Origin: Deinococcus radiodurans R1 = ATCC 13939 = DSM 20539
Lineage (GTDB): Bacteria > Deinococcota > Deinococci > Deinococcales > Deinococcaceae
Direction: 5' to 3'
Assembly: GCF_000008565.1 (NCBI RefSeq)
Contig: NC_001263.1
Span: 795,776-827,775, forward strand
DNA: 32,000 nucleotides
Each line of letters begins with the position of its first letter. The stretch's first letter is position 1. Made by a program: the position numbers and the translations under genes. The notes under the pieces were generated by a model, which worked only from the letters and a program-made list of their open reading frames with translations, did no database searches and was not told where the DNA came from. Positions 8,451 through 10,130 of this stretch are shown piece by piece.

Positions 8451-10130
8451 ATGCTGTTTCTGTCCGTCTTGCTGCTGGCCGCCGCGTTTCTGGTCGGCAG
8501 TCTGCCCCTGGGTCACTGGCTGCTGCGCCGCGCCGGGGTCAGCACCCGCCTCAACAGTGCCCACAACCTGGGCGTCGAGAACGTCCTGCGCCGCGTCGGT
8601 CCCCGCCTCGCGTTCGGGAGCGCGGCGCTCGACTTTCTCAAGGGGCTGCTGGCGGTGGTCATGGCCTCCAGCCTCGGCCCTGGTTACGGCGGCGTGATGG
8701 TCCTCGCGGGGCTGGCGGCGTACCTGGGGCACCTCAACCCGCCGCGCTTTCTCTACGGCGAAACGCCCCCACGCGGGCGCGGCAACCTGGTGCTGCTCGG
8801 CGTGCTCGCCGGGTACGCGGTCACCGGGGCGCTGCCGCTGTGGCTCACGCTGGTGCCGCTCGTCGTGTACGCGGCGGTGGCGGGCTACTGGGGCTTTATC
8901 AGCGCGGCGACGCTGGCGGCGCTGGCAGCCCTTGCCGGGGTGGGGGCGCTGCTGCCGCTCACGACGGGCAGCAAGGTCGGGCTTCTGGGGCTAGGGCTGG
9001 CCGCCGCGTGGCGCTTCAAGGAAAACGTGGGCCGTATTCTCGACGGCACCGAGGCGCGGCTGGGCGAGGAAGTTCCGGTGGCGGGCAAGCGCGACGACGT
9101 GGTGGTCGCCGCCTTCATGATTCACCCGATGAACCTGCACGACTTCTGGTCGGCGCCGCGCTTCGCCTGGCTGCGGCCATTGGTCGAAAAGCGGCTGGTC
9201 ACCGAAAAATCGGTGCGCCGCATGGCCGACGAGATGCGCCCGATGAAGGTGGGCGAGCTGCGCGGCATTCGCACGGCTCAGGGCAAGGAAATCCGCTGCT
9301 ATCTGCTCTCGGCGCCGCTGCTGCCTGACCGCTTCCGCGACAATCCCGAGCTGGCAACCCGCCGCGCCATCGAGGGCGCCCGCCTCGCGCACGAGCTGGG
9401 GGCCGAGGTCTTCGGCCTGGGCGCCTTCTGGAGCGTGGTCGGCAACAAGGGTGTGGACGTGCAGGCCGCCGTGCCCGAAATTACCATCACCAACGGGGGC
9501 GCTTACACCTCCGGCACCATTAAGGCCGCCATCCCCGGCATCCTCAAGCACTTTGCCGAAACGGGGCGTGACCTGAAGCAGGCCACGGCGGGCATCGTGG
9601 GGGCCAACGGGGTGGTCGCCTTCGGCATCGCCCGCACCATCGCCCCGCAGGTCGGCAAAATCATCATGATTGGCCGCGACGCCGAGCGGCTGGAGCGCAG
9701 CGCCAACACCCTGCGCCGCGCCAATCCGAACACCGACATCGTGACCACCACCAGCTACGACTCGCTGAACGAGGCCGACCTGATTTTCTCGGCCACCAGC
9801 GACCCCAACCCGGTGATTTTCCCACAGCACGTCAAGCCCGGCGCCTGGATTTTCGACGAGGGCCGCCCTGCCGACGTGGACGAGAGTGTCCGCAACGTGC
9901 CCGGCGTGCGTATCATCCCTGGCGGGCTGGTGACGCCTCCCGGTTCCATGACCACCGGCATCGACCTGCAATTCGGCGTCGGCAACGTGCCCGCCTGCCT
10001 CGCCGAAACGCTGATTATCGCTGCAACGGGCGAACACCAGCGCAAGAGCCTGGGGCCGCAGACGCTGACCGAGAACATCAATTTCTTCGTAGACGAGGCC
10101 GAGAAACTGGGATTTAAGGTCGTGGACTGA
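8451..10130 (+). CDS. fusion protein: PlsY-like membrane acyltransferase domain + acyl-ACP-reductase-like NAD(P)-binding domain
   Basis: This is a single 559-codon frame. The N-terminal ~200 aa is hydrophobic with PlsY landmarks (FLVGSLPLG, NLGVENVLR, LDFLKG, LGH, AWRFKENVGRIL). The C-terminal ~340 aa is collinear with cyanobacterial acyl-ACP reductase (GIVGANGVVAFGIA, EADLIFSATS, IFDEGRP, VPACLAETLI). Confidence 0.8.
   Translation: MLFLSVLLLAAAFLVGSLPLGHWLLRRAGVSTRLNSAHNLGVENVLRRVGPRLAFGSAALDFLKGLLAVVMASSLGPGYGGVMVLAGLAAYLGHLNPPRFLYGETPPRGRGNLVLLGVLAGYAVTGALPLWLTLVPLVVYAAVAGYWGFISAATLAALAALAGVGALLPLTTGSKVGLLGLGLAAAWRFKENVGRILDGTEARLGEEVPVAGKRDDVVVAAFMIHPMNLHDFWSAPRFAWLRPLVEKRLVTEKSVRRMADEMRPMKVGELRGIRTAQGKEIRCYLLSAPLLPDRFRDNPELATRRAIEGARLAHELGAEVFGLGAFWSVVGNKGVDVQAAVPEITITNGGAYTSGTIKAAIPGILKHFAETGRDLKQATAGIVGANGVVAFGIARTIAPQVGKIIMIGRDAERLERSANTLRRANPNTDIVTTTSYDSLNEADLIFSATSDPNPVIFPQHVKPGAWIFDEGRPADVDESVRNVPGVRIIPGGLVTPPGSMTTGIDLQFGVGNVPACLAETLIIAATGEHQRKSLGPQTLTENINFFVDEAEKLGFKVVD

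Follow-up and report, generated by a model that had tools for sequence, protein, structure and literature searches.

PlsY, an acyltransferase of the membrane, is known structurally from Aquifex aeolicus (aaPlsY), in which the phosphate of glycerol-3-phosphate (G3P) is clamped by Ser35, Arg45, Lys104 and Asn180 and its 2-hydroxyl is held by Ser142 and His177, within a pocket whose residues are highly conserved among 7,288 homologs (PMC5700162). The acyl-phosphate site is formed by His92, by Thr41 and by main-chain atoms of loop 3; just two side chains bind this donor, and Thr41 is one of them. The enzyme is crippled by S35A, by R45K and by every tested substitution of His177, and its activity is nearly abolished by N37D (PMC5700162). 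In the long-chain acyl-acyl carrier protein (acyl-ACP) reductase (AAR) of cyanobacteria, the acyl group is accepted by Cys294, the dinucleotide by a 162-GATGDIG-168 loop, and the 2'-phosphate of NADPH or the 3'-phosphate of coenzyme A (CoA) by Arg189 and Arg193; the alkyl tail sits in a tunnel with its exit at the N-terminal subdomain, the site of product transfer to the partner enzyme (PMC7089970). In PigE, the aldehyde released by an N-terminal reductase is transaminated to an amine by a class-III transaminase; the reductase activity was seen in cell lysates with a synthetic thioester, and the purified enzyme is poorly active (PMC8341465). A PlsY-like and an AAR-like domain are joined in one gene of Deinococcus radiodurans R1, hereafter the fusion, which lies in a 32,000-nucleotide stretch of contig NC_001263.1 (positions 795,776 to 827,775, forward strand; hereafter the window).

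The favoured reading of the fusion, given a probability of about 0.5, is that of a membrane-docked, NAD(P)H-dependent reductase that would form fatty aldehydes, and by its sequence the protein is the best current candidate for the first step towards the alkylamine lipids of Deinococcus and Thermus. Literature searches aimed at a PlsY/AAR fusion found no paper on such a protein. Both folds and their chemistry are already known; their combination, the repeated decay of the PlsY site after fusion and a probable misannotation appear not to have been described.

The two domains and their active sites

The fusion starts with an ATG at 8451 and ends with a stop codon at 10128-10130, with 559 codons and no break between them. 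The first-pass annotation, made from the letters alone, had described one uninterrupted frame, which is confirmed by the open reading frame (ORF) call and by codon-position GC (0.88 at third positions vs 0.48 at second positions, the same pattern as in other genes of the window, which is ~68% GC). The fusion is neither a frameshift nor an assembly artefact, because a fusion of the same length recurs in more than 270 species genomes; its nearest database proteins are from Deinococcus, at 99% identity (ENA contig) and 93% (D. wulumuqiensis). The assignment of two domains, PlsY-like and AAR-like, is likewise upheld by Pfam, NCBIfam, PDB sequence and Foldseek matches, which lie far beyond chance, and the motifs quoted for it are all found at the residues given. 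The gene and the features of its reductase half are as follows.

8451..10130, + strand: PlsY-like/AAR-like fusion ORF, 559 aa plus stop; full-length orthologs exist
9099..10127, + strand: C-terminal cytoplasmic reductase domain of the AAR/PigE-N type, residues 217-559, from Pfam, NCBIfam, PDB sequence and Foldseek matches
9600..9620, + strand: dinucleotide-binding loop G384-A-N-G387-V-V-A390, equivalent to 162-GATGDIG-168 of AAR, from the alignment with AAR (PMC7089970) and conservation
9675..9689, + strand: Arg409 and Arg413, equivalent to Arg189 and Arg193 of AAR (which line the pocket for NADPH 2'-phosphate or CoA 3'-phosphate), from the AAR alignment and conservation
9996..9998, + strand: Cys516, predicted acyl-accepting nucleophile, equivalent to Cys294 of AAR and Cys296 of PigE, from alignments

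The reductase half carries the motifs FMIHP (222-226), GLGAF (322-326), ITNGGAYT (346-353), IVGANGVVAFGIA (382-394), IFDEGRP (467-473) and VPACLAETLI (513-522), and a Rossmann model of Pfam matches residues 373-488. Its best NCBIfam match is the N-terminal region of PigE (NF053554; E-value 1.5e-27, residues 258-556 on profile positions 38-334), followed by AAR (AcACP_reductase, TIGR04058; 1.4e-13, residues 272-556) and then by glutamyl-tRNA reductase. PDB sequence matches give PigE (4ppm, 8e-14) and AAR (6jzu, 1.7e-11), and the top Foldseek match of the predicted structure is AAR (6jzz/6jzu; E-value 7e-19, template-modelling (TM) score 0.75 on the target, ~360 aligned columns). The collinearity with cyanobacterial AAR that the first-pass annotation had proposed is thus seen in the AAR profile, in the 6jzu alignment and in Foldseek. 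The profile searches that it proposed for each half both found the right family, but both scores are far under the equivalog cut-offs: the reductase half reaches 50.9 bits on TIGR04058, with a cut-off of 449.7, and the whole protein 96 bits on NF053554 vs a cut-off of 850; the PlsY-like half reaches 59.4 bits on TIGR00023, with a cut-off of 137.2. To judge from these matches, the protein is a distant member of the AAR/PigE-N lineage and not an AAR.

Cys516 had been proposed as the counterpart of the catalytic cysteine, and the PDB sequence alignments agree, placing its context VPACLAET on FACFAEA around Cys294 of AAR and on NGCMAET around Cys296 of PigE. In an alignment of 87 fusion proteins it is invariant (87/87), as are His225, Ala385, Gly387, Thr449, Asp469 and Pro473; Gly384 is kept in 86/87 with a single G384S, Arg413 is Arg or Lys in 87/87, and Arg409 is Arg in 58/87 and Thr in 26/87. 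Arg314 of the AAR NADPH site has no securely aligned equivalent in the fusion, and the loop, Arg409 and Arg413 do align. Because the conserved residues map to the catalytic cysteine, the dinucleotide loop and Arg189/Arg193 of AAR, the parts that a Cys-thioester, NAD(P)H-dependent reductase needs are, at the level of the alignments, intact and strongly constrained. A fused class-III aminotransferase is absent, the protein ending at residue 559 with no PF00202 domain in a Pfam scan.

The PlsY-like half and the linker contain the following features.

8451..9065, + strand: N-terminal membrane domain of PlsY fold, residues 1-205, with seven transmembrane helices and a C-terminus placed in the cytoplasm by homology to aaPlsY; from PF02660, 5xj5, Foldseek and model helices
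8547..8591, + strand: degenerate PlsY motif R33-R47, RLNSAHNLGVENVLR, in which Ser35 is replaced by Ala37 and Thr41 by Glu43, Arg45 corresponds to Arg47 (variable in the family), and Asn37 and Asn42 are kept
8730..8732, + strand: His94, equivalent to His92 of the aaPlsY phosphate hole, invariant across the fusion alignments
8769..8783, + strand: PRGRG, equivalent to loop 3 (GGKG in canonical PlsY); four residues are inserted before it in comparison with aaPlsY, and a basic residue is kept at the position of Lys104
9009..9026, + strand: WRFKEN (canonical YRHREN), in which His177 is replaced by Phe189 and Asn180 corresponds to Asn192
9045..9098, + strand: linker, residues 199-216, DGTEARLGEEVPVAGKRDD, with predicted local distance difference test (pLDDT) values of 84-87 and with Glu201 invariant across all fusion clades

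The PlsY fold itself is well matched. PF02660 (G3P_acyltransf) covers residues 12-196 with an E-value of 1.9e-22 and 80.5 bits vs a cut-off of 24.1, the aaPlsY sequence 5xj5 is matched at 3e-11 to 8e-12, and Foldseek aligns this half to 5xj5-5xj8 with an E-value of 6e-8, TM scores of 0.80-0.83 on the target and a root-mean-square deviation of 3.0 Å. The landmarks read by the first-pass annotation, FLVGSLPLG (13-21), NLGVENVLR (39-47), LDFLKG (60-65), LGH (92-94) and AWRFKENVGRIL (186-197), are therefore genuine as scaffold motifs and as fold, but the G3P clamp and Thr41 among them have been replaced. On alignment with aaPlsY, Arg45, Asn180 and His92 correspond to Arg47, Asn192 and His94; Ser35 has become Ala37, Lys104 Arg110, Ser142 Thr154, His177 Phe189 and Thr41 Glu43, so that the set of clamp and 2-hydroxyl ligands is not kept. 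In Deinococcota, position 35 (aaPlsY numbering) is Ala, Pro or Val in most proteins, 41 is nearly always Glu, 45 is variable (Tyr, Glu, Gln or Lys in relatives) and 177 is Phe, Tyr or His, and Thermus replaces even Asn37. The Pfam score reflects the same difference, at 80 bits here vs 134-150 bits in both fusions with canonical motifs that were scanned. As far as aligned residues can tell, the PlsY half keeps its fold and has lost its G3P-binding residues, and for this reason it would not be a housekeeping G3P acyltransferase. At the acyl-phosphate site, the invariant His94 and the PRGRG loop are found together with Glu43 in place of Thr41, and the capture of acyl-phosphate by this half, which had been suggested earlier, is not evident from the sequence, as Thr41 is a ligand of that donor.

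The fusion bears the name "glycerol-3-phosphate acyltransferase" in NCBI and UniProt. The supplement of the aaPlsY paper carries a synthetic plsY gene of Thermus thermophilus (PMC5700162), the translation of which is canonical, at ~197 residues with GSGNIGATNVLR, GH, GGKGVAT and THREN, and matches annotated plsY genes elsewhere. As the fusion is present in many Thermus species, Thermus has a normal PlsY besides it, and the fusion would therefore be a paralog. With the G3P clamp lost and a separate canonical plsY present in T. thermophilus, the database name is probably wrong. By extension from Thermus, Deinococcus presumably has a separate canonical plsY as well; tblastn with T. thermophilus PlsY against a plasmid collection and the fetched loci only, with no search of whole Deinococcus genomes, returned the plsY of other organisms or the fusion itself. 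The naming of the family is inconsistent among genomes: an ortholog from Meiothermus luteus is called "Long-chain acyl-[acyl-carrier-protein] reductase" by NCBI, and at 447 aa it has a shorter N-terminus than the 555-556 aa orthologs of other Meiothermus, its start probably having been miscalled.

An AlphaFold2 model of the full chain, built on 61 sequences, has a mean pLDDT of 92.3 and a predicted TM score (pTM) of 0.87. For a protein made of about 200 and 340 residues, such a pTM suggests that the reductase is rigidly docked on the membrane domain. As the subdomain that holds the tunnel exit in AAR directly follows the membrane domain, the PlsY-derived half would be well placed to take up the product or to supply the substrate.

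Occurrence and neighbouring genes

Full-length orthologs of 550-565 residues are found in more than 100 Deinococcus clusters and in Deinobacterium, Truepera, Meiothermus, Thermus and Oceanithermus, and the fusion is conserved throughout Deinococcota. A motif-seeded scan of 185,579 species, one genome for each, found relatives in just 277. The best 80 of these 277 matches include Deinococcota, Thermaerobacter marianensis, metagenome-assembled genomes (MAGs) of Bacillota, Armatimonadota and Actinomycetota, and Candidatus Sysuimicrobiota.

Some fusions have kept their PlsY half intact. A search of 1.8 billion cluster representatives found a distant clade at 25-32% identity in which this half is fully canonical; at least five proteins and three loci represent it, and 3/3 contigs examined resemble genomes of the candidate phyla radiation (CPR; Patescibacteria type), with the gene overlapping gpsA in one of them. 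Within the main clade, fusions from six loci of Actinomycetota and Armatimonadota MAGs also keep all canonical residues, namely S35, N37, T41, N42, R45, H92, K104, S142, H177 and N180, and a rough neighbour-joining tree has the canonical PlsY state as ancestral among fusions. Since these main-clade proteins stay canonical, the sequences are read as showing separate losses of the G3P site after the fusion arose: one in Deinococcota, one in Thermaerobacter, one in the Bacillota MAGs and one in the Sysuimicrobiota/Armatimonadota group.

The AAR-like domain also occurs with other partners. In nine further proteins it is joined to a PlsC-type acyltransferase, to an SRPBCC/polyketide-cyclase domain, to PilZ plus SRPBCC, to an unannotated N-terminal region of ~300 residues or, in two PigE-like cases, to a class-III aminotransferase. 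The PlsY domain has another partner too, in a 599-residue protein in which it is joined to NAD-dependent glycerol-3-phosphate dehydrogenase (GpsA).

In the window the fusion is flanked by cysK on one side and by an alpha/beta hydrolase on the other. ORFs were called and clustered in 90 loci and the recurrent neighbours annotated; these are housekeeping genes that depend on lineage, among them upp, glnA, a dCMP-deaminase-like gene, a DEAD-box helicase, glyA, prfA/prmC, rpiB, tdk, a cysteine desulfurase and ABC transporters, and in Thermus infC-rpmI-rplT, a small membrane protein and an MqnB-like nucleosidase. In Thermus oshimai JL-2 (6543-9309 of the locus), the fusion overlaps a PF06695 small membrane protein upstream and a PNP_UDP_1 nucleosidase, futalosine-hydrolase-like, downstream, in an operon-like block that directly follows infC-rpmI-rplT and has no obvious lipid link. 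In D. proteolyticus the next gene downstream of the fusion (9714-11306 of the locus) is phosphatidyltransferase-like, of the PLD type (PLDc_2), and in Deinobacterium and D. peraridilitoris the next gene upstream encodes a membrane acyltransferase of the Acyl_transf_3 family; both neighbours are lineage-specific and could have a relation to lipids. Gene context speaks neither for nor against any pathway. The first-pass annotation had noted that no gene for aldehyde-deformylating oxygenase (ADO) is nearby, and indeed there is no match to the ADO family among the ORFs of the 32 kb window or among the annotated neighbours.

A class-III aminotransferase is encoded at 13290-14687 (- strand), 3.2 kb from the fusion. 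Its best match is LysJ ([LysW]-aminoadipate semialdehyde transaminase) at 597 bits, with a cut-off of 700, or else ArgD, and it is probably a lysine/arginine enzyme; being LysJ/ArgD-like and not syntenic with the fusion in other loci of Deinococcota, it was rejected as the missing transaminase. Elsewhere in the window, none of them adjacent to the fusion, are a lycopene cyclase family gene (18766-19998, - strand), a UbiA-family prenyltransferase (25773-26771, + strand) and an ORF of the aldehyde dehydrogenase family (30811-31980, - strand), the listed frame of which covers only profile positions 89-461, so that its true start may be upstream.

A putative source of fatty aldehyde and its alternatives

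Alkylamine phosphoglycolipids have been known since the 1980s and serve as chemotaxonomic markers. In Thermus, Meiothermus and Deinococcus they reportedly rank among the major lipids; their presence in Deinococcus and Thermus, noted in the first-pass annotation together with the lack of assigned enzymes, is borne out by the literature, a 2022 paper still describing the enzymes for the extra chain and the head group as unidentified (PMC3398001, PMC9636437). Literature searches found no later enzyme assignment.

The searches, alignments and model show the identity of the two domains, their fold, the conserved catalytic and cofactor residues, the loss of the G3P site and the distribution among lineages; reductase activity, acyl donor, direction of lipid hand-over and lipid role are inferred. 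The gene would encode a two-domain enzyme of the inner membrane. The C-terminal ~340 residues would be a cytoplasmic Rossmann reductase of the AAR/PigE-N-terminal/glutamyl-tRNA-reductase lineage. An activated long-chain (C15-C18) acyl group would first be moved onto Cys516 as a thioester, which NAD(P)H would reduce, and a long-chain fatty aldehyde would leave. The PlsY-like half would hold the reductase rigidly at the cytoplasmic face of the membrane and would most likely move lipid between membrane and active site, either by taking the product aldehyde or by bringing the acyl donor. As the likeliest use of the aldehyde, an aminotransferase encoded elsewhere would then transaminate it to the long-chain alkylamine of N-glyceroyl-alkylamine phosphoglycolipids.

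This last step, the feeding of the aldehyde into the alkylamine, is put forward tentatively, at odds clearly short of even. It is strengthened by the closest characterised relative, the N-terminal part of PigE, which makes an aldehyde for transamination, and by the phylum-wide presence of the fusion in Deinococcota, whose signature phospholipids carry N-glyceroyl-alkylamine. The chain lengths are also compatible: the alkylamine of Thermus is iso-C17 and the acyl chains found are iso-C15 and iso-C17, so that the amine matches the iso-C17 acyl chain in length and branching, which fits reduction and transamination with no loss of carbon. Besides Deinococcota, only Bacillota are reported to have N-glyceroyl-alkylamine lipids (Bale et al. 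2025, cited in PMC13274423), and according to a recent report these lipids dominate the lipidome of some Bacillota; the idea is strengthened again by the fact that some Bacillota carry homologs of the fusion. For Thermaerobacter, a literature search found no lipid data among the 15 papers that it listed.

Several points weigh on the other side. The AAR and PigE scores are so far under the equivalog cut-offs that homology cannot transfer the substrate or even the direction of the reaction, and across the 90 loci there is no consistently linked transaminase, glycosyltransferase or phosphatidyltransferase. The Bacillota species with the fusion may differ from those with the lipid, and Moorella thermoacetica, a reported producer of N-glyceroyl-alkylamine, is not among the best 80 of the 277 genome matches. 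Relatives are also present in Sysuimicrobiota, Armatimonadota and Actinomycetota MAGs, outside the phyla for which the lipids are reported. Finally, the fusions with a canonical PlsY half suggest that the original functional link was with acyl-phosphate or with G3P acylation, not with amine lipids.

The acyl donor is where the nearest rival departs from the favoured reading. Homology speaks for acyl-ACP or acyl-CoA as the donor. The architecture points to acyl-phosphate, the partner fold being that of PlsY, with His92 and the basic residue of loop 3 kept while the G3P ligands decay; the loss of Thr41 and the channel geometry of AAR argue against direct capture of acyl-phosphate. In the rival, the PlsY-derived half would bind acyl-phosphate made by PlsX, Cys516 would attack it instead of G3P, and NADPH would reduce the thioester in the manner of ArgC, Asd or ProA. 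PlsY is the sole known acyltransferase fold that binds acyl-phosphate, which is also the simplest metabolite that the two domains could share; moreover, His92, the basic residue at 104 and the glycine-rich loop 3 are kept in all clades as the G3P residues repeatedly decay, fusions with fully canonical PlsY exist, and the two halves are rigidly docked in the model. Against this, Deinococcota have Glu at position 41 and other lineages have Gly, Arg, Val or yet another residue there, and a nearby carboxylate, that of N37D, nearly abolished the activity of aaPlsY. In AAR, the carbonyl reaches the cysteine through the NADPH/CoA cleft with only the alkyl tail in the tunnel to the N-terminal subdomain, so that a charged acyl-phosphate coming from the membrane would have to enter head first, which looks unfavourable, and the characterised relatives (AAR, PigE and glutamyl-tRNA reductase) all take thioester or ester donors. 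An acyl-phosphate reductase is judged unlikely.

A bolder proposal, and a distinctly unlikely one, would make the fusion the missing first enzyme of the N-glyceroyl-alkylamine pathway and give it two new activities, the first lipid acyl-phosphate (or membrane-coupled acyl-ACP) reductase and a repurposed PlsY half that uses acyl-phosphate chemistry on a new pair of substrates. The latter would, for example, form an amide bond between an alkylamine and a glyceroyl-phosphate donor such as 1,3-bisphosphoglycerate, and the Glu that Deinococcota conserve in place of Thr41 could assist the amine as nucleophile.

The aldehyde may also have another destination: it could go into fatty alcohols or wax esters, into ether-type lipids, or into the long-chain 1,2-diols that occur in glycolipids of Thermus and Meiothermus. 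The chemistry would be that of the favoured reading, the AAR-like domain is elsewhere joined to PlsC-type acyltransferases and SRPBCC lipid-binding domains, and the lack of a linked transaminase suits such a fate; the fusion is nevertheless universal in its phylum, as are alkylamine phosphoglycolipids, whereas diol glycolipids are on record for some Thermus and Meiothermus strains only, and there is no alcohol-forming reductase or wax synthase nearby, which makes another product improbable.

Quite improbable is a supply module, PlsX-like or GAPDH-like, in which a Cys516 thioester derived from acyl-ACP, acyl-CoA or the oxidation of an aldehyde would be phosphorolysed, and the acyl-phosphate passed to the fused or to a separate PlsY. 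Cys-thioester dehydrogenases such as GAPDH, Asd and ArgC do interconvert aldehydes, thioesters and acyl-phosphates, strong phylum-wide conservation would suit a housekeeping role, and in the CPR-like fusions, one of which seems to share an operon with gpsA, the PlsY part has the look of a functional G3P acyltransferase. In Deinococcota, however, the fused PlsY is without its G3P site and would offer no acceptor in cis; phosphorolysis is not known for any member of the AAR/glutamyl-tRNA-reductase lineage, and plsX would be expected to be present in Deinococcota. Lastly, the database name could be right, in which case the fusion would be a functional PlsY and its dehydrogenase-like domain would have an accessory or regulatory part. 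This is highly improbable: the protein passes the PF02660 threshold, has the PlsY fold and is so named by NCBI and UniProt, yet it scores 59 bits vs 137 on TIGR00023, has Ser35, Arg45 and His177 of the "invariable G3P pocket" as well as Thr41 replaced in its family, stands beside a separate canonical plsY in T. thermophilus, and keeps every catalytic feature of its reductase half under strong constraint.

A single candidate, conserved across the phylum and with a clear catalytic residue in Cys516, makes a decades-old question testable. If the favoured reading is true, a widespread annotation as glycerol-3-phosphate acyltransferase would be corrected, the PlsY fold would be shown to be open to repurposing, and a route to fatty aldehydes and amines at the membrane, of interest to biotechnology, would be added; were the donor acyl-phosphate, the enzyme activity would be new.

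Likeness to described systems

In comparing the fusion to the cyanobacterial AAR of Synechococcus elongatus (6JZQ/6JZU; TIGR04058), the three-subdomain fold, the catalytic cysteine (Cys294, here Cys516), the GxxGxx(G/A) loop, Arg189/Arg193 and the VASM/SATS loop are shared. The identity is ~21% in the structural alignment, and Tyr247 of AAR corresponds to Arg472. AAR is soluble and has ADO as its partner, whereas the fusion is membrane-attached with no ADO gene nearby, in a non-cyanobacterial host with no known alkane production. With PlsY of A. aeolicus (5XJ5-5XJ9; TIGR00023) it has in common the seven-helix fold, G-S-x-P-x-G, LDxxKG, GH, the basic residue of loop 3 and the KEN motif. It differs in the family's loss of Ser35/Arg45/His177 and of Thr41, the ligand of the acyl-phosphate carbonyl, in the 4-residue insertion before loop 3 and in the 340-residue reductase that is appended.

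ArgC, Asd, ProA and GAPDH in reverse offer a mechanistic analogy only, from acyl-phosphate to Cys thioester to aldehyde; their catalytic domains have an unrelated fold, their substrates are soluble, and they gave no sequence match in these searches. The TAD domain of carmabin biosynthesis (PDB 9E4S-9E56, released 2025) is the second-best Foldseek match, at an E-value of ~1e-14, and by the PDB titles it binds NAD(H) and has its active-site cysteine in a disulfide with dephospho-CoA; it differs in being part of a polyketide synthase/non-ribosomal peptide synthetase assembly line, and its identity to the fusion is ~18%. Glutamyl-tRNA reductase (HemA) differs in its substrate, Glu-tRNA, and in that only the Rossmann part matches (E-value ~1e-8); it belongs to the same superfamily of Cys-thioester, NADPH-dependent reductases, and its aldehyde is channelled to a partner aminotransferase/aminomutase. 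PigE, which differs in being soluble, in having its own class-III aminotransferase domain and in acting on a short branched beta-keto thioester, is the best-scoring characterised relative of the reductase half: the context of its Cys296, NGCMAETIV, resembles VPACLAETLI of the fusion, and the aldehyde that it forms goes on to an amine.

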